From Bifidobacterium longum subsp. longum JCM 1217 (lineage in GTDB: Bacteria > Actinomycetota > Actinomycetes > Actinomycetales > Bifidobacteriaceae): a stretch of 32,000 bases of DNA. Positions 233 to 6,822 of this stretch are shown piece after piece. The notes under the pieces were generated by a model. The model worked only from the letters and a program-made list of their open reading frames with translations, was not told the origin of the DNA and searched no databases. The stretch lies in assembly GCF_000196555.1 (NCBI RefSeq), contig NC_015067.1, positions 1,350,001 through 1,382,000 on the forward strand. The letters are read 5' to 3'. Position 1 is the first letter of the stretch; every line of letters starts with the position of its first letter. The translations under genes and the position numbers were made by a program.

Positions 233-1201
233 GTGAAGAAGTTTTTCGAAGGTCTTTCCCTCTCATCCATCGTGGCGGGCACCCTTGCCGCCGTCACCTC
301 ATTCTTACTGGCATCGAAAATCGGTATCGCCGGCTCGGTAATCGGCGCGGCAGCCAGCTACATCGTCTCCGCGGTGGCCACCAAAATCTATCAAAACATA
401 CTCACCGCCTCCGGTGAGAAACTACAGTCGGCCTCGTCTTCCGGCAATGACGATGACACTACGGATAATAAGTCCGATAAGGCAGCCGAATCCGAGTCCG
501 ATACGACGATGACCGGCATGGTCAATACCGTTTCCACCGCGCGCAAGCCGCGCGAAGTCGTGTCCAATCGAGCGAACGGACGAACCTATTCGGTCAATGA
601 ACTGCGCAAGGCCCGCTCCCATAATTCGAAGCGCACCGCCATTATCGTCACGCTGGTATCCGGCCTGCTCGCCGTGGCAGTAACCGCCGGCATCGTCATG
701 CTAGTCACGCAGGGCCGTGGCACGGACCATATCATCACTCCGTCCACCACGCCCACGCAAACCGACACCAAAACGCAGACCGACACGTCCAATCAGAATA
801 ACGGACTGCCGCAGCCGGGCATTACCGACGGTTCGAATGATTCCAACACCAAGGACTCCACATCCGGCTCGTCCAACGACGGCACCGATTCAAGCACGTC
901 CGGCTCAACCGGCACCGACTCCTCAACCGATTCCAACACCAATGGATCCACCGATGGTTCGACCGGCACCGATTCCTCCACTAATTCGGGCACGACTGGC
1001 GGTTCCACCGGTTCCGGCACCACCGGAGGCACCACCGGCACCGGCAACGGTTCAACCGGATCGGGTTCAGGATCAGCCAATGGCTCCGGTTCCTCTTCCA
1101 GCTCCACGGGCGGATCATCCAGTTCAAACTCCGGTAATAGCGGTTCGAGCGGCTCCTCAACCGGTAGCAGCAGCGGAACCGGCATCAAATTCATTGGCTG
1201 A
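233..1201 (+). CDS. Membrane protein with a Ser/Thr/Gly/Asn/Asp-rich low-complexity C-terminal region (function unknown)
   Basis: 322-aa ORF with a GTG start at 233. It has hydrophobic segments (LSLSSIVAGTLAAVTSFLLASKIGIAGSVIGAAASYIVSAVA and TAIIVTLVSGLLAVAVTAGIVMLV) followed by about 140 aa composed almost entirely of S/T/G/N/D. No catalytic motif. Confidence 0.6.
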   Translation: MKKFFEGLSLSSIVAGTLAAVTSFLLASKIGIAGSVIGAAASYIVSAVATKIYQNILTASGEKLQSASSSGNDDDTTDNKSDKAAESESDTTMTGMVNTVSTARKPREVVSNRANGRTYSVNELRKARSHNSKRTAIIVTLVSGLLAVAVTAGIVMLVTQGRGTDHIITPSTTPTQTDTKTQTDTSNQNNGLPQPGITDGSNDSNTKDSTSGSSNDGTDSSTSGSTGTDSSTDSNTNGSTDGSTGTDSSTNSGTTGGSTGSGTTGGTTGTGNGSTGSGSGSANGSGSSSSSTGGSSSSNSGNSGSSGSSTGSSSGTGIKFIG

Positions 1202-1828: not shown

Positions 1829-1845
1829 CGAAAAGGTCCTGATTC
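1829..1845. terminator. Left half of a hairpin split by the IS3 insertion (stem CGAAAAGGTCCTGA plus loop remnant TTC)
   Basis: 1829..1842 CGAAAAGGTCCTGA is the exact reverse complement of 6809..6822 TCAGGACCTTTTCG. It lies 16 nt after the cyclophilin stop. Confidence 0.55.
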
Positions 1846-1869
1846 TGAACCGCACCCCGATTGTTGGAC
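1846..1869. repeat. IS3 left terminal inverted repeat (TGAACCGCACCCCGATTGTTGGAC)
   Basis: Matches the reverse complement of 6775..6798 (TGAACTGCGCCCCGATTGTTGGAC) with 2 mismatches. Confidence 0.8.
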
Positions 1870-1909
1870 TGAAGTAATTCAGATTCGATGATCGGAGGTG
1901 CGGTTTCTC

Positions 1910-2425
1910 ATGTGTAGGGATCGCAGGCGTCATTACGATGACGGTTTCATGCGGGTCGTCGCCGACCTGATCCGGGGCGGGGCCGGGAGGCGTTCTCTCG
2001 CCCGCCGGCTTGGCGCGCCCGTCAGTACCGCGGGAAAATGGGTGTTGTCATACCGGTTTGGCGGGGAGGCGGCGCTCATGGGAGAACGCGAAGGCAACAG
2101 GAGATACGACTACGAGACGAAGCTCGCGGCGGTGCGCGACCATGTGGAGCATGGGCTGACGAAGGCCGAAGTCATGGAGAAGTACAGGATCGCGGGTCCC
2201 GCCCCGTTGGAGCGCTGGTGCCGCGAGTACCGGTCCGGCGGCCCGGACGCGCTGCGTCCGAAACCGAAGGGCAGGCCCAGGGGCGCGAAATCCAAGCCGA
2301 GGCCGGCTCCCACAAGGGAACAGCTCCTTGAGGAGGAGAACGCGTACCTCAAGGCGAGGGTCGCGTACCTGGAAAAAGTCGACGCCCTGCTGGCGCGGAG
2401 ATCGGCAACCGGGACAGAACGGTGA
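1910..2425 (+). CDS. IS3-family transposase OrfA (HTH plus leucine zipper)
   Basis: GGAGG at 1894-1898 precedes ATG at 1910. RRHYDDGF...LARRLGAPVSTAGKWV resembles the IS3 OrfA HTH, and the C-terminal heptad region is LEEENAYLKARVAYLEKVDALLA. The ORF-track start at 1898 (GTG) overlaps the SD and is less likely. Confidence 0.8.
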   Translation: MCRDRRRHYDDGFMRVVADLIRGGAGRRSLARRLGAPVSTAGKWVLSYRFGGEAALMGEREGNRRYDYETKLAAVRDHVEHGLTKAEVMEKYRIAGPAPLERWCREYRSGGPDALRPKPKGRPRGAKSKPRPAPTREQLLEEENAYLKARVAYLEKVDALLARRSATGTER

Positions 2426-2997
2426 TCGTCTCCATGCTGGCGGGGCCGGGACATCGGCTCCGGCACCTGCTCAGGGCGGCCGGACTGGCGAAAAGCACGT
2501 ATTACCATCTTCTGTCGCATCCGGCCGCCGTGACCCGGCCGGACATCGAGCCGATGGTCGCCGAGATATTCGCGCGCACGCCCAACGGGTGCGGCCACCG
2601 GCAGATACGCATGTGCCTCGTGCACGAGTTCGGGGTGCGGGTGAGCCACAAGAGCGTGCTGAAGGTCATGAGGCGCATGGGCCTGGAATGCCGGATACGC
2701 AGGCCGAACCCGTACCGGAAATACAGCTCGTACCGGGACGAGACGGGCGCGAGGGCGGAGAACCTGCTGAACCGCGACTTCACGGCCGACCGGCCGTGGG
2801 TGAAGCTGGGCACGGACGTCACCGAGTTCAGGGTCGCCGACGGCAAGGCGTATCCGGCTCCCGTATACGATATGGGATCCAAGGAGATCGTGGCCTGGGA
2901 CGTCAGCCGGCATCCCGACATGGCCCAGCAGCGGCGCCTGCTCGCCATGCTCGAGGAGAAGCTGCCCGAAGACGCCGACCCGATCCCGCACTCCGAT
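2374..2997 (+). pseudogene. IS3-family transposase OrfB, 5' fragment (truncated at the HSD motif by the nested element)
   Basis: The -1 frame relative to orfA is open from the A-AAA-G site at 2373-2378. It reads ...LLRAAGLAKSTYYH...WVKLGTDVTEF...YDMGSKEIVAW...PIPHSD, then meets TAA supplied by the inserted element at 2998-3000. Confidence 0.8.
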
Positions 2998-3090
2998 TAA
3001 GCCGGGTTTGTTGTTAAGCCGGGGAACGGTTCGGGGTCTTGGTGGCTGGCCGTGTCCCATGTGGTTTCCCGGCTTAACGTTCCGGGTTAT
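2997..3090. repeat. Left 94-bp terminal inverted repeat of the RIT element
   Basis: I verified base by base that it is the exact reverse complement of 6344..6437. It contains TTAAGCCGGG at 2997-3006 and 3014-3023, and the inverted copy CCCGGCTTAA at 3068-3077. Confidence 0.95.
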
Positions 3091-3130
3091 GTTCGTCTTG
3101 TCCCATTTGATTCGAACGAAGGAGTTTGCC

Positions 3131-4333
3131 ATGGGTGAGACGACGGTTGGCCATGTCGCGGGCGAGGTGGTCCGCGCGCTTTACGGGGCCGGTTATATGG
3201 AATCCACCATAGGCCAGTACCGCAAGTCCATCAGGGCGTTGGAACGGTACGCCGGAGGCCCGGATGCGGTGTACACGCGTGGGTTGGGCGCGGGGTTCGC
3301 CGCGTCGACCTTCAGTGAGCGGACGGGCGGTTTCAGCAGGCAGCGGTGGTTCGATTACGGCAGGCTGGCGCGTTTGTGCGACTCGTATCTGCGGTCCGGT
3401 TCGGTGGACCTGGGCAAGTGGCGCAGGAGCAGGCTTGCGGAGCCGGTGGTTCCGGGTTTGGCCGTGGTCATGGAGCGTTGGGAGGCGTATCTCGCCGGTT
3501 CGGGACTGGCTTCGGCGACGGTGGGGCATTACCGTCGGATGGCGGGCTTGTTCCTCACGTGGCTGGAATCTCATGGGGTCGTGTCGTTGGACGGTTCGGA
3601 TGGCTCGCATGTGCTGGGGTTCCTGGCCGGGCTGCGTTCACGCTGGTCGGAGTCGTCGATGCGGCACGCCGCGTCGGACCTGCGCCCGTTGTTCAGATGG
3701 CTCGGGCGGGATGACCTGGCGGACGCGATCGGCCTGGCCGGCATACGCAGGACCCACGCGATCGCGGGAACGTTGCCCGACGACGAGCACCGCCGCTTGC
3801 TGGAGGCGTGCGCCTCGCGGTCGGTGCCGTCGAGGGACGCGGCGATCACCCTGCTGTCGCTGACGTGCGGGCTGAGGGCATGCGATGTGATCGGTCTGAG
3901 GATCGCCGACGTGGATTGGGATTCCATGAGCATAGGTCTGGTGCAGCGAAAGACGGGCAATCCGTTGACCGTGCCGATGACGGGACCGCTGGCCGCGAGG
4001 CTGGCGTCCTGGCTGTTGGACGAAAGGCCCGCCACCGACGACGACCGTGTGTTCGTGCGGTACAAGGCGCCCCATGTCGCGCTTCGGGGTCATTCATCGG
4101 TGTACGAGGCGATCAGCCGTGTCATGCGGCACGCCGGGCTCGGACGCCGGGGCGGTTCCAGGCTGTTGCGGCGCAACGCGGCGACGAGGATGCTGGAGGC
4201 GGCCACGCCGTTGCCGACGATCAGCGCGGTGCTTGGCCACGCCGACCCCGATTCCACACGCGTCTACATGGCCACGCACCGCGGGGGAATGCTCGCGTGC
4301 GTGCTGCCCGTGCCGGAAGGCGGATCGTCATGA
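3131..4333 (+). CDS. Tyrosine recombinase/integrase, first of the trio (RitA position)
   Basis: GAAGGAG at 3118-3124 precedes ATG at 3131. The N-terminal region is SAM-like. The C-terminal catalytic region reads CGLRACDVIGLRIADVD...GSRLLRRNAATRMLEAATPLPTISAVLGHADPDSTRVYM, with a conserved LGH...Y ending. The stop overlaps the next start (ATGA at 4330-4333). Confidence 0.85.
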   Translation: MGETTVGHVAGEVVRALYGAGYMESTIGQYRKSIRALERYAGGPDAVYTRGLGAGFAASTFSERTGGFSRQRWFDYGRLARLCDSYLRSGSVDLGKWRRSRLAEPVVPGLAVVMERWEAYLAGSGLASATVGHYRRMAGLFLTWLESHGVVSLDGSDGSHVLGFLAGLRSRWSESSMRHAASDLRPLFRWLGRDDLADAIGLAGIRRTHAIAGTLPDDEHRRLLEACASRSVPSRDAAITLLSLTCGLRACDVIGLRIADVDWDSMSIGLVQRKTGNPLTVPMTGPLAARLASWLLDERPATDDDRVFVRYKAPHVALRGHSSVYEAISRVMRHAGLGRRGGSRLLRRNAATRMLEAATPLPTISAVLGHADPDSTRVYMATHRGGMLACVLPVPEGGSS

Positions 4334-5295
4334 GACCCACGGAACACGGATTCGTCGGCCCGCTCGCCGGCGAATTGGAGGAGTACATCCGTTTCAAGGC
4401 GTCCATGGGCAGGCATGGCGCCACCCGCGTCCAGGTCCTGCGCTCGTTCGACCGGCATTGCCTCGAACACGGGGCCGTGCGTCTGGAGCGGGGCGTCGTG
4501 GAGCGATGGATCGCCCATAGGATCGACGCGAATCCCGGGGGTTGCCGCTCGTGGTTCTCGTACATCAGGGACTTCGGCAGGTGGATGCGACTGGCCCACG
4601 ATCCCGACGCGTACGTGCTCTCCGACCAGTGGAAGGCCGGATCCCCGCGTCCGACGCCGTACCTGCTGACGGACCGCGAGGCCGCCCTGTTCCTGCGGGC
4701 CGCGGGAACGTTGGAGTCTCCGTCGCCGTGGGCGTGGCAGTCTCGCGCGTTCTTCATGCTCATGGCCTGCTGCGGGCTGCGCACCCGAGAGGTCAGGAGA
4801 CTCGCCGTCGGGCACGTCGACCACAAGGCCCGTTCCATCGACGTGGTCGATTCCAAGGCCGGTCGCAGCCGCAGGCTGCCCGTGGGCGACGAGGTCGCCG
4901 CCGAACTGCTGGAATGCGACCAACGGTCCCGCGAACGCTTCGGAGACGACCGTCCCGCGTTCTTCGTCACCTCCACCGGCAATCCGGTCTCCCCGGGCAT
5001 GCCCGGCGTGGTGTTCCGCCGCGTCTGGACGCGGGCCGGGCTCGAGTGGCCACAAGCCGGCAAACGGCCCAGGCCCTATGATTTCCGGCACCGGTTCGCG
5101 TTCGCGAACATCGAGCGGTGGACTCGCGACGGCGTGGACGTGATGGCGATGCTGCCCTATCTGGCGGCCTACATGGGACACGCCGGCATCGACAGCACCC
5201 TCTACTACGTGCACGCCAGCCTCGATTTCATGGACGGATACGCGGACCTCGTCGCCGACGCCGAACGCGTGGTCCCGGAAACGGAGGAACCATGA
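4330..5295 (+). CDS. Tyrosine recombinase/integrase, second of the trio (RitB position)
   Basis: Starts MRPTEHGFVGPLAGELEEYIRF. Catalytic region: CCGLRTREVRRLAVGHVD...PYDFRHRFAFANI...YMGHAGIDSTLYYV. There are ATGA overlaps at both ends (4330-4333 and 5292-5295). Confidence 0.85.
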   Translation: MRPTEHGFVGPLAGELEEYIRFKASMGRHGATRVQVLRSFDRHCLEHGAVRLERGVVERWIAHRIDANPGGCRSWFSYIRDFGRWMRLAHDPDAYVLSDQWKAGSPRPTPYLLTDREAALFLRAAGTLESPSPWAWQSRAFFMLMACCGLRTREVRRLAVGHVDHKARSIDVVDSKAGRSRRLPVGDEVAAELLECDQRSRERFGDDRPAFFVTSTGNPVSPGMPGVVFRRVWTRAGLEWPQAGKRPRPYDFRHRFAFANIERWTRDGVDVMAMLPYLAAYMGHAGIDSTLYYVHASLDFMDGYADLVADAERVVPETEEP

Positions 5296-6347
5296 GCAAG
5301 GCAAGGAAAACGGCCGCCAGCTCCGGTGAACCGGACTTCTGGCGAGTCGCGCGCGACTGGCTGCACCACTGGCTGCCCAAGGTGCGGGGCAGCTCGCCGA
5401 AGACCGTCGAGGCGTACCGCATCGGCCTGGAATCCTACGTCCGATGGCTCGAAACCACGGAAGGCACGCAGCGCAGCCACATCGGTTTCGGGCATTTCGA
5501 CCGGGCGCGCCTGGGCCGGTGGGTCGAATGGATGCGGACCGAGCGCGGGTACTCGGACCGCACCATCATGCTGAGGATGACGACGATGCGCGTGTTCCTC
5601 GACCACGCGGGCCTCGAACACCCGGCATTGACCGCGCTGGGCAACGACGCGGCCGGCATACGTGTCAAACCACCCGCGCGCAAACCCGTCGACCACCTCG
5701 GGGAGGAGCACACCAAAGCGTTGCTGACCGCATGGGGCACCGGCGACGCCAAATCGCGCAGGAACCGCATGCTCCTGATCCTCATGTACGACACCGCCGC
5801 CAGGATCGGCGAACTCGCCGCACTGACCATCGCGGACGTGGGTATGGATAAGCCGGCCAGGGTCACGCTCACCGGCAAACGCGGCAAGAGCCGGGTCGTG
5901 CCCCTGGGAGAAAGGACACGAACCCACCTGGCCGCCTACCTCGAGGAATTCCATCCCGGACCGTCCATGCGCGACGGCGACGGGCCGTTGTTCCACTCGA
6001 CGAGGAACGGCGCCATCCAGCCGCTCTCCGTGGACCGGATCGACGAGATCCTCAAAACCGCGGCGGCCAGAGCACGCCGCGGGACGTGCCCGTCCATGCC
6101 CGAACGCGTCCACTGCCACCTGATCCGCCGGACCCGCGCCATGGACCTCTACCAACAGGGCGTGCCGCTACCGCTCATCATGCAACTGCTCGGCCACGAA
6201 AGCATGAGCACAACCAGCGCGTTCTACGCGTTCGCGACCCTCGACATGATGCGCAAAGCCGTCGATGCGGCCAACCCCGGCCCCGACCCCTCCAAGGAGA
6301 CATGGCTCAGCGAGCAACGACTCCGACAACTACACACCCTCAAATAA
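5292..6347 (+). CDS. Tyrosine recombinase/integrase, third of the trio (RitC position)
   Basis: Starts MSKARKTAASSGEPDFW. The core-binding region includes SPKTVEAYRIGLESYVRWL. Catalytic region: DTAARIGELAALTIADV...VHCHLIRRTRAMDLYQQGVPLPLIMQLLGHESMSTTSAFYAF. The TAA stop (6345-6347) lies inside the inner end of the right inverted repeat. Confidence 0.85.
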   Translation: MSKARKTAASSGEPDFWRVARDWLHHWLPKVRGSSPKTVEAYRIGLESYVRWLETTEGTQRSHIGFGHFDRARLGRWVEWMRTERGYSDRTIMLRMTTMRVFLDHAGLEHPALTALGNDAAGIRVKPPARKPVDHLGEEHTKALLTAWGTGDAKSRRNRMLLILMYDTAARIGELAALTIADVGMDKPARVTLTGKRGKSRVVPLGERTRTHLAAYLEEFHPGPSMRDGDGPLFHSTRNGAIQPLSVDRIDEILKTAAARARRGTCPSMPERVHCHLIRRTRAMDLYQQGVPLPLIMQLLGHESMSTTSAFYAFATLDMMRKAVDAANPGPDPSKETWLSEQRLRQLHTLK

Positions 6348-6437
6348 CCCGGAACGTTAAGCCGGGAAACCACATGGGACACGGCCAGCCACCAAGACCC
6401 CGAACCGTTCCCCGGCTTAACAACAAACCCGGCTTAA
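6344..6437. repeat. Right 94-bp terminal inverted repeat of the RIT element
   Basis: Exact reverse complement of 2997..3090. Motif copies are at 6357-6366 (TTAAGCCGGG), 6411-6420 and 6428-6437 (CCCGGCTTAA). Confidence 0.95.
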
Positions 6438-6469
6438 TCACTGTTAAACCGATGTCGGTTTAACAGTGA
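6438..6469. repeat. 32-bp palindrome TCACTGTTAAACC-GATGTC-GGTTTAACAGTGA (13-6-13 layout) abutting the right inverted repeat
   Basis: Read directly. The 13-nt arms are exact reverse complements. Each arm contains TGTTAAACCG, a 9/10 match to the subterminal TGTTAAGCCG of the 94-bp repeat. No counterpart exists at the left junction. Confidence 0.85.
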
Positions 6470-6752
6470 CATGGGCTGGCAGTACCGGCACCGGTGGTGG
6501 CGCGACCGGCTCGCGGGACTGAACATCCGCCAGTCCATGAGCAGGAAGGGCAACTGCATCGACAACGCCGCGACCGAGCAGGTGTTCGGCCACCTCAAGG
6601 ACGAGTTCCACGCCGGACGCGAGTTCGCCTCATACGAACAGTTCAAGAACGAACTGGACGCGTACATCATCCACTGGAACACCAAACGCCGCCAGATACG
6701 ACTGGAGGGACACACCCCGGAGGAATTCCGGAACATGTCCCCCACAGCCTAA
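6470..6752 (+). pseudogene. IS3-family transposase OrfB, 3' fragment
   Basis: MGWQYRHRWWRDRL...SMSRKGNCIDNAATEQVFGHLKDEF...WNTKRRQIRLEGHTPEEF is the typical C-terminal part of an IS3 integrase core (DDE glutamate region). It continues the frame broken at 2997. Confidence 0.85.
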
Positions 6753-6774
6753 TCAGGTACCCTTAATAAACCAC

Positions 6775-6798
6775 GTCCAACAATCGGGGCGCAGTTCA
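6775..6798. repeat. IS3 right terminal inverted repeat (GTCCAACAATCGGGGCGCAGTTCA)
   Basis: Its reverse complement matches 1846..1869 at 22/24 positions and it ends in CA. Confidence 0.8.
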
Positions 6799-6822
6799 GG
6801 TATTCCAGTCAGGACCTTTTCG
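6799..6822. terminator. Right half of the hairpin split by the IS3 insertion (loop remnant GGTATTCCAG plus stem TCAGGACCTTTTCG)
   Basis: 6809..6822 is the exact complement of 1829..1842. ATTC at 6802-6805 repeats ATTC at 1842-1845 and may be a target duplication, offset 3 nt from the IRR end. Confidence 0.5.

Follow-up and report, generated by a model that had tools for sequence, protein, structure and literature searches.

What is a long palindrome doing beside one end of a mobile element that has split a transposase gene? The question is raised by positions 6438–6469 of a 32,000-nt stretch of the Bifidobacterium longum subsp. longum JCM 1217 chromosome (NC_015067.1, positions 1,350,001 to 1,382,000; hereafter the window), where the palindrome separates a trio of tyrosine recombinase genes from the C-terminal part of an IS3 orfB gene. 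The trio, which lies between the two halves of orfB, is a recombinase-in-trio (RIT) element. We found that the palindrome is not IS3 sequence and, judging from its sequence, it is very probably a recombinase-binding component of the attachment (att) sites of the RIT. We consider it probable that the palindrome belongs to the element as a built-in cis-acting component and is no scar, that the core site comprises one palindrome arm, a 6-bp overlap and the terminus of the RIT repeat, and that strand exchange takes place in the 6-bp sequences.

The palindrome is already in the literature, as part of an element that has been described before. Lee et al. 2008 (BMC Genomics 9:247, PMC2430713) named such B. 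longum structures mobile integrase cassettes (MIC), and their Additional file 2 gives the exact 20-bp core of the palindrome (P), with the 96-bp repeat and the palindrome kept in 7 MICs. Window positions 2995–3090 are the published MIC repeat, and 6444–6463 are the reverse complement of the published TTAAACCGACATCGGTTTAA. The MIC shares with the element described here the same palindrome and 96-bp repeat, three contiguous xerC-type integrases and IS3 halves on both sides, and the published 11-bp extension of MIC III resembles the 6+6 bp seen here. The paper, however, goes no further than describing the palindrome, and draws the element as 'sandwiched by two IS3 elements'. Here the two halves belong to one IS3 that is interrupted at the HSD codons, the extension resolves into two 6-mers that vary and come from targets, and we propose a function for P. 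No function was assigned to P in Lee et al. 2008 (PMC2430713) or in the later citing paper. MICs have been linked to large deletions in B. longum during laboratory culture. Like the RIT elements of Van Houdt 2009/2012 and Ricker 2013, the window's element has a ritA-ritB-ritC trio, 4-bp gene overlaps and long terminal inverted repeats with sub-motifs, and its trio has homologues on C. necator pHG1 and on other plasmids. In a review table of 2023, RIT movement, target specificity and mechanism are still given as untested.

Organization of the element and its host IS3

The features of the locus are as follows, attL and attR being the left and right att sites.

1845..1869, plus strand: IS3 left terminal inverted repeat, 25 nt, 92% complementary to 6775–6799
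1898..2425, plus strand: IS3 orfA (Pfam HTH_28 and HTH_Tnp_1)
2422..2996, plus strand: N-terminal part of IS3 orfB, ending ...PIPHS(D), the target N-arm (Pfam HTH_21, rve)
2991..2996, plus strand: attL 6-mer CTCCGA, from the codons (CA)C TCC GA(C) of the target itself, same as in the empty sites L018/L019
2997..3090, plus strand: RIT left terminal repeat, with the putative outermost half-site (I) TTAAGCCGG at 2997–3005
3131..4333, plus strand: ritA, tyrosine recombinase, 400 aa (Pfam Phage_integrase and SAM-like domains)
4330..5295, plus strand: ritB, tyrosine recombinase, 321 aa (Pfam Phage_integrase), 4-bp overlap with ritA
5292..6347, plus strand: ritC, tyrosine recombinase, 351 aa (Pfam Phage_integrase, SAM_1), 4-bp overlap with ritB
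6344..6437, minus strand: RIT right terminal repeat, with the putative outermost half-site I CCGGCTTAA at 6429–6437
6438..6443, minus strand: internal 6-mer TCACTG (opposite strand CAGTGA), separating the inner P arm from the terminus of the right repeat
6444..6463, no strand: conserved 20-bp palindrome P, TTAAACCGA TG TCGGTTTAA, two putative back-to-back half-sites with a 2-bp centre
6464..6469, plus strand: attR 6-mer CAGTGA, foreign to this IS3 (native CTCCGA)
6470..6752, plus strand: C-terminal part of IS3 orfB, (D)MGWQY..., the target C-arm (Pfam rve_2, rve_3)
6775..6799, minus strand: IS3 right terminal inverted repeat, pairing with 1845–1869

The host IS3 thus spans approximately 1845–6799. 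Its orfB breaks after ...PIPHS at CAC TCC GA (2989–2996) and resumes at (GA)C ATG GGC TGG CAG TAC, from position 6468/6470 onward; the N-arm is collinear with intact copies (P0001–P0003 and L018/L019) up to 2996, and the C-arm from 6468. The RIT is flanked by 96-nt repeats that are 100% complementary (2995–3090 and 6344–6439), and between them we found three recombinases (321–400 aa) and no fourth gene. All three rit open reading frames (ORFs) match PF00589, and the adjacent position of the genes on the same strand, their 4-bp overlaps, within the 4–8 bp described for RITs, and the terminal inverted repeats are those of a RIT. An identical RitC protein is present in many B. longum genomes, and a search with RitC returned trios in the same gene order on 124 plasmids, including pHG1 (31% identity, E = 1e-30).

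We analysed the palindrome itself, TCACTGTTAAACCGATGTCGGTTTAACAGTGA, which had been described by the original prediction as 13-bp arms around a 6-bp centre. The arms are perfect and the central TG is the sole asymmetry, but the G..C and A..T of the supposed centre also pair, giving arms of 15 and a perfect 15-2-15 inverted repeat. There is no longer short-loop palindrome in the whole window, and the longest arm in 100 dinucleotide-preserving shuffles was 8–13, never 15. The conserved arm, p, is TTAAACCGA, and the other arm is TCGGTTTAA. The half-site TGTTAAACCG was confined to the two palindrome arms in the 32 kb searched, while a related motif, [T/C]GTTAAGCCG, has two copies in each RIT terminal repeat (3012–3021 and 3070–3079 in the left one); TGTTAAGCCG or CGTTAAGCCG gave 7 matches against 1.7 expected, two of them per terminal repeat. 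The likeness that had been claimed between the arms and a motif of '94-bp' repeats is supported, but the repeats are 96 nt long, and the leading TG of the 10-mer used for that comparison belongs to the variable 6-mer.

The palindrome is foreign to IS3

Intact OrfB proteins that are 97–99% identical to the reconstructed OrfB read PIPHSDMGWQY, with zero extra residues. Two empty sites were found at the DNA level: the same cyclophilin-IS3-relA locus from another sample with the IS3 uninterrupted (L018), and an IS3 copy at another locus (L019). Both read ...CCCGCACTCCGAC|ATGGGCTGG, with the codons CAC TCC GAC ATG GGC and without P. Comparison of the window with the empty sites by BLAST revealed an insertion of 3471 bp (2997–6467) with a 2-bp GA at both junctions. 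The inserted DNA consists of repeat, rit genes, repeat, TCACTG, the 20-bp core P and CAGT(GA). Since intact IS3 copies, one of them at the same locus, lack P, the palindrome is foreign to IS3 and arrives with the RIT. This agrees with the original prediction, which held that the palindrome is not native IS3 coding sequence and would be missing from uninterrupted copies of the IS; a native or ancestral IS3 origin is ruled out by the same copies.

In complete B. longum genomes, a second type of IS3 (HSDRGCHY) also harbours the identical RitC, there with the rit genes inverted. The two layouts, in the orientation of the interrupted IS3, are:

Window: ...CAC TCC GA, repeat-ritA,B,C-repeat, TC ACTG TTAAACCGA TG TCGGTTTAA CAGT GA, C ATG GGC
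Second context: ...CAC TCG GA, repeat-ritC,B,A-repeat, TC GGAG TTAAACCGA CA TCGGTTTAA CAGT GA, C AGG GGT

Both contexts have P on the target's C-terminal side, and the centre of P, TG in the window, flips along with the rit genes. The same two orientations were seen in a complete Pseudarthrobacter genome at two copies of one target. The original prediction noted P at the right junction only; it is indeed only at the right, ritC-side junction in the window's copy, but elsewhere it is on the ritA side, and what stays constant is the C-terminal side of the interrupted transposase gene. The link between the centre (TG/CA) and rit orientation holds in complete genomes, with three metagenome exceptions (L038, L068, L126).

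The junction with the target lies 6 bp outside the palindrome

We scanned metagenomes with TTAAACCGANNTCGGTTTAA, which gave at least 112 loci and, with one viral-contig locus, 119 occurrences among the matches listed; the counts given here are for these listed matches. Of the 119 occurrences, 98 have one arrangement in common: on one face of P come 6 bp and then a RIT terminus (TTAAGCCGG in gut elements, TTATGCCGAGG in a soil subfamily), and on the other face 6 bp and the D-x-G-x-x-Y codons of an IS3-family transposase. Approximately 8 are unrelated chance palindromes. P was split by target DNA in none of more than 100 listed occurrences, and the junction of element and target is 6 bp outside P. 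The C-arms found at the P junctions comprise at least 54 distinct 16-mers, all but one of 214 6-mers beside P fit YNNNGA (213/214), and the centre of P is TG/CA, AT, AA/TT, TA or AC. The diversity of at least 54 IS3 C-arm sequences at the same codon rules out a lone IS3::RIT composite, spread by IS3 transposition, as the full explanation.

A scan of genome contigs with RitC gave 9 loci, with no B. longum representative among them. One locus (L001, 3721 bp, labelled as an uncultured Collinsella sp. metagenome-assembled genome (MAG)) is 99.5–99.8% identical to the B. longum RIT and IS3. Its right repeat is joined to an inverted IS3 N-part; the contig, which is uninformative on junctions, probably represents a B. 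longum repeat that was mis-binned, the assembly having run through the perfect inverted repeat.

The 6-mers as probable footprints of earlier targets

The 6-mers read (CA)Y, a Ser or Thr codon and GA(C), with CTCCGA, TTCCGA, CTCGGA, CAGTGA, CAGCGA, CACCGA and CTCAGA among the forms. The attL 6-mer, located between N-arm and terminus, does not change within an N-arm type (25 junctions, 11 types), and is CTCCGA in all six junctions with the window's N-arm. It is native at both verified targets, being CTCCGA in the window's IS3 (L018/L019) and CTCGGA in the second IS3 (L145). The attR 6-mers, in contrast, vary for one single C-arm and were native in none of 17 junctions at the two verified targets (at least four independent events). 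The attR and internal 6-mers also vary among near-identical elements, the internal ones being TTCCGA, CTCGGA, CAGTGA or CTCCGA. The foreign 6-mers are native elsewhere: CAGTGA, found at both the attR and the internal position of the window, is native to another B. longum IS3 (L146, CAC AGT GAC CGC GGC TGC CAC) and to a Rhodococcus target; CAGCGA and CACCGA are native attL 6-mers in soil elements; and in the second B. longum context the 6-mer between repeat and P is, on the other strand, CTCCGA, the native flank of the window's IS3. Because attL is native, while attR is foreign to its own target but native to other IS3s, the 6-mers, which vary and derive from target codons, are probably footprints of earlier targets. 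Under the published SE/Tn554 rule, attL keeps the 6 bp of the target while attR receives 6 bp from the left flank of the donor; the pattern found here, from few independent events, is consistent with it.

The same layout accompanies distant RITs

The succession of 6 bp, 9-2-9 palindrome, 6 bp and terminus was found beside one end of RITs whose RitC is just 30–52% identical. The cited proteobacterial layouts are those checked by eye.

Bacillota MAG: TTATGCCGA AT TCGGCATAG, CACAGA, TTATGCCGAAG
Youngiibacter: TCGCTA, TTATCCCGA AT TCGGGATAA, TAGCGA, TTATGCCGAAG
A Clostridiales MAG: same 6 bp, 9-2-9, 6 bp, terminus layout
Arthrobacter, Rhodococcus and Mycobacterium plasmids: same 6 bp, 9-2-9, 6 bp, terminus layout
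C. necator pHG1: TAGCGC, AAATGTGCT GC AGCACATTT, GCGCTA, TTACCGGCCG
Mesorhizobium: TGTCGC, TAATTCCGG GT TCGGAATTA, GCGACA, TAACTCCGAG
Agrobacterium vitis: same layout except for a 4-bp centre

The layout is conserved across phyla, being present in most RITs examined from Actinobacteria, Firmicutes and Proteobacteria. From element to element, the sequence of the P arms changes in step with the motifs of the accompanying repeats. In pHG1 and in soil actinobacterial elements the arms are closer to the inner repeat motif than to the terminus, which hints that two binding specificities may be involved, as with XerC and XerD. The original prediction would have been undermined by otherwise similar trio elements without the palindrome; copies carry P except for rearranged forms and two lineages, which are described below.

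In C. necator H16 pHG1 (L136, 1083–1114 and 4612–4646), the RIT appears to interrupt a 'site-specific integrase' gene rather than an IS3, and the palindrome is likewise on the C-terminal side of the interrupted gene. If this reading of pHG1 is true, each RIT subfamily targets a gene of another mobile element.

A model for the RIT attachment sites

Inverted arms around a 6-bp spacer are the canonical core layout of tyrosine recombinases, XerCD/dif being 11-6-11. A dif-like site does exist at this locus, in the form of one P arm, the adjacent 6-mer and the repeat terminus, and the internal 6-mer with its two neighbours amounts to such a 9-6-9 site in full (X1). The p and I sequences that face each other across a 6-mer are in inverted orientation, and they match at 7 of 9 positions in B. 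longum (TCGGTTTAA and CCGGCTTAA). Because p arm and terminus form the canonical layout, we propose that P is two 9-bp recombinase half-sites (TTAAACCGA) that stand back to back, separated by a 2-bp centre, and that each looks outward to a 6-bp spacer. Recombination would then use the core site TCGGTTTAA-NNNNNN-TTAAGCCGG, a 9-6-9 inverted repeat like dif, with the p and I motifs presumably bound by Rit proteins and cleavage expected at the 6-mer boundaries.

In the integrated element, attL would be composed of the IS3 N-arm, 6-mer and I, and attR of the outer p arm, 6-mer and IS3 C-arm. Recombination of attL with attR would yield a circle with the junction I-6-P-6-I, a structure of near two-fold symmetry carrying two inverted core sites; joining the ends of the window's insert indeed gives a perfect long palindrome centred on TG. 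Integration into the His-Ser/Thr-Asp codons of IS3-family transposase genes could proceed via either core site, leaving the rit genes in either orientation and P always on the C-terminal side of the target. Two inverted core sites would thus account for both rit orientations, the constant C-side position of P, its flipping centre and the old footprints on both of its faces. Strands would be exchanged within the 6-mers with no match to the target required, and exchange within non-homologous 6-mers would leave footprints, the donor's left-flank 6-mer travelling to the attR of the next site in what looks like one-sided inheritance.

The model can be compared with three known systems. As in XerC/XerD at dif, the succession of p, 6 bp and I consists of two similar, non-identical inverted arms around a 6-bp spacer; in the C. 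necator RIT the two arms are of unrelated sequence, which suggests two different binding proteins. RITs differ from dif in not serving chromosome dimer resolution, in a spacer that is not conserved and in having three recombinases. Tn554 and SE (strand-biased circularizing integrative) elements are likewise multi-protein tyrosine recombinase transposons that insert site-specifically; in them attL retains 6 bp of the target and attR bears a 6-bp footprint from the donor, an arrangement that the RIT may share. The RIT, however, is without a large recombinase and a TnpC/Srap homologue, and has long symmetric terminal repeats and a double-faced palindrome that would allow either orientation. With the coupling sequences of Tn916/CTnDOT it has in common non-homologous 6–7-bp overlap sequences carried from the previous site; those elements, in contrast, use an Int with arm-binding sites and Xis and leave footprints at either end, whereas RIT attL was native wherever checked.

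The model would turn a described but unexplained palindrome into a concrete att site, specifying the bases bound, the positions cut, the circle junction and the target. RIT elements are widespread in many phyla and on many plasmids, and in the comparisons the RIT emerges as a mobile element whose insertions specifically inactivate transposases belonging to others. More tentatively, and at somewhat less than even confidence, we suggest a wider picture in which the palindrome and its two 6-mers, found from Betaproteobacteria to Firmicutes and Actinobacteria, are a widespread signature of RITs and reveal the unsolved mechanism of their transposition. RITs would form pseudo-symmetric circles with two inverted, dif-like core sites for heterodimers, integrate in either orientation and leave 6-bp donor footprints, which would provide a rationale for more than one recombinase specificity. 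The RITs of Actinobacteria and Firmicutes would then be dedicated parasites of mobile elements, striking IS3-family transposases at the HSD codons of the catalytic core.

Several observations weigh against the model. The RITs examined in Bacillus (L137) and Bradyrhizobium (L144) have no such palindrome. P is on both sides of the element in the complete plasmid L133 of Arthrobacter sp. U41 and in several metagenome contigs, and on neither side of three RIT copies, with identical flanks, in the complete genome of Eubacterium minutum ATCC 700079; these forms require extra events, such as inversion between copies. Short-read contigs cannot orient the interior, or link the ends, of an element between 96-bp perfect inverted repeats, and the one-sidedness of the footprints, though it fits the SE/Tn554 rule, rests on few independent events. 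No circle junction of the form I-6-P-6-I or I-6-I was present in the fetched loci or viral contigs, a result that is uninformative, and RIT circle junctions were likewise not found in one mobilome study. The target arms have no obvious similarity to p or I, which leaves attB recognition without explanation, and symmetry is the only explanation for the need for two p arms rather than one.

The forms with P on both sides or on neither have further peculiarities. In L133 (2099–2268 and 5519–5688) the inverted repeat reaches 170 nt, with approximately 50 bp of the IS3 C-terminal flank duplicated in inverted orientation beyond each palindrome. The seven metagenome contigs with P on both sides (L042, L053, L074, L075, L081, L083, L085) could be assembly chimeras; such contigs make up about one-third of the full-length metagenome contigs, the fraction expected from random joining. 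The E. minutum copies (L003/L004, 3687–7106; L009, 7511–7597) have no palindrome and so represent the case reciprocal to that of P on both sides. Both of their flanks resemble IS3 N-terminal arms (..ATA CAC ACA GA| and inverted ..ATC ATC CAA ACT GA|), and L009 has a second, partial copy of the right repeat approximately 500 bp downstream.

Other readings of the palindrome

P might act via its structure. Single-stranded or supercoiled DNA could form a hairpin or cruciform there that serves a pathway of strand-biased copy-out or of hairpin intermediates, in the manner of folded attC or CTX-type sites or of a telomere-resolvase-like junction; P might also be an insulating terminator. We regard this as unlikely, even if it has several points in its favour. 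The 6438–6469 sequence forms a very stable hairpin as single-stranded DNA (fold −16.7 kcal/mol, z = −6.4), its centre is free to vary like a loop, and published RIT DNA was exonuclease-protected without detectable circle junctions, for which those authors proposed hairpin intermediates. The inner p arm, 6-mer and I also make a terminator-like hairpin with a T-rich tail on the minus strand (6429–6452), where 9 pairs are followed by GTTTGTTGTT in a simple scan. It is, however, the sequence of the arms that is conserved, not just their pairing: identical TTAAACCGA arms are found in gut and soil elements with different termini, and the resemblance of the arms to each element's repeat motifs points to protein recognition. 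P itself is followed by no T-tract and has no Rfam match; the sole terminator-like match is the X1 site on the minus strand, and a terminator or RNA element is kept as a minor rival. The structural reading and the half-site model are compatible, not exclusive. The hairpin at 6429–6452 would face transcription entering the element from the 3′ side of the IS3. Integron attC and CTX attP sites are imperfect hairpins with extrahelical bases and are recognised as single strands; the P hairpin is perfect and stable.

The original prediction took the palindrome itself for a dif/lox/FRT-type core (13-6-13) with exchange in the central GATGTC, which would make P an attP or a P x P resolution site. The perfect inverted arms and their likeness to the repeat motif, which are features of sequence, speak for such a core, and so do a few contigs (L077, L047) where P lies by itself, without a RIT, between IS3 C-arms in inverted orientation and which could be P x P products of the forms with P on both sides. 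What survives of the prediction is that the palindrome is foreign to IS3, belongs with the RIT and resembles its repeat motif; the crossover, however, was misplaced, as the boundary with the target is 6 bp outside P and never inside it. The spacer of dif, lox or FRT is conserved between partner sites, but the central dinucleotide of P is not, and the symmetric AT of many lineages would abolish directionality; the nucleotides that both vary and come from targets are those of the 6-mers on either side, not those of the centre. Exchange within P is therefore highly doubtful. P with its 6-mers stands between two different inverted IS3 C-terminal arms without an adjacent RIT in three loci (L077 at approximately 1744, L047 at approximately 22 and L120 at approximately 882), which may be rearrangement products.

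It is also very improbable that P is a separate miniature non-autonomous element made up of two half-sites, or the degenerate relic of a second RIT, lying in tandem and having no role in RIT mobility. Formally, the succession of 6 bp, p, NN, p and 6 bp resembles a 20-bp element with two ends, and it has a 6-mer in common with the RIT, as tandem insertions would. A solo P in an otherwise intact IS3 was not found among the matches listed, though the scan was anchored on P, and, against an independent element, P accompanies RITs of distant phyla and co-varies with their motifs. This points to co-evolution and selection.

Abutted RIT termini, as a relic of a circle junction, were rejected: the arms have the opposite polarity, the motif reading towards the centre, and those of soil and Arthrobacter elements equal the inner motif of the repeat and not its terminus. 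Nothing supports the earlier suggestions that the site is a hybrid produced by integration or that it serves in cargo capture. After consideration of these alternatives, P as a pair of outward-facing half-sites is the reading that we prefer.

Additional observations

RitA residues 1–113 (window 3131–3470) have no Pfam match and precede the SAM-like core-binding domain. In a published classification, RitA proteins are described as carrying two core-binding domains in succession, an arrangement that could suit paired half-sites.

A decayed RIT remnant is present in another Bifidobacterium lineage (L150–L157, approximately 5380–5480), with ritC fused into a 487-aa ORF and an IS256-type transposase upstream. 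Here the centre of P is TA and the attR 6-mer CAGAGA, followed by the same type of IS3 C-part (DMGWQY).

Outside the IS3, a 322-aa ORF at window positions 233–1201, upstream of the gene of a cyclophilin-type isomerase (1244–1813), has a long Ser/Thr/Gly/Asn-rich low-complexity region with degenerate 27–90-bp repeats (families D1–D6).

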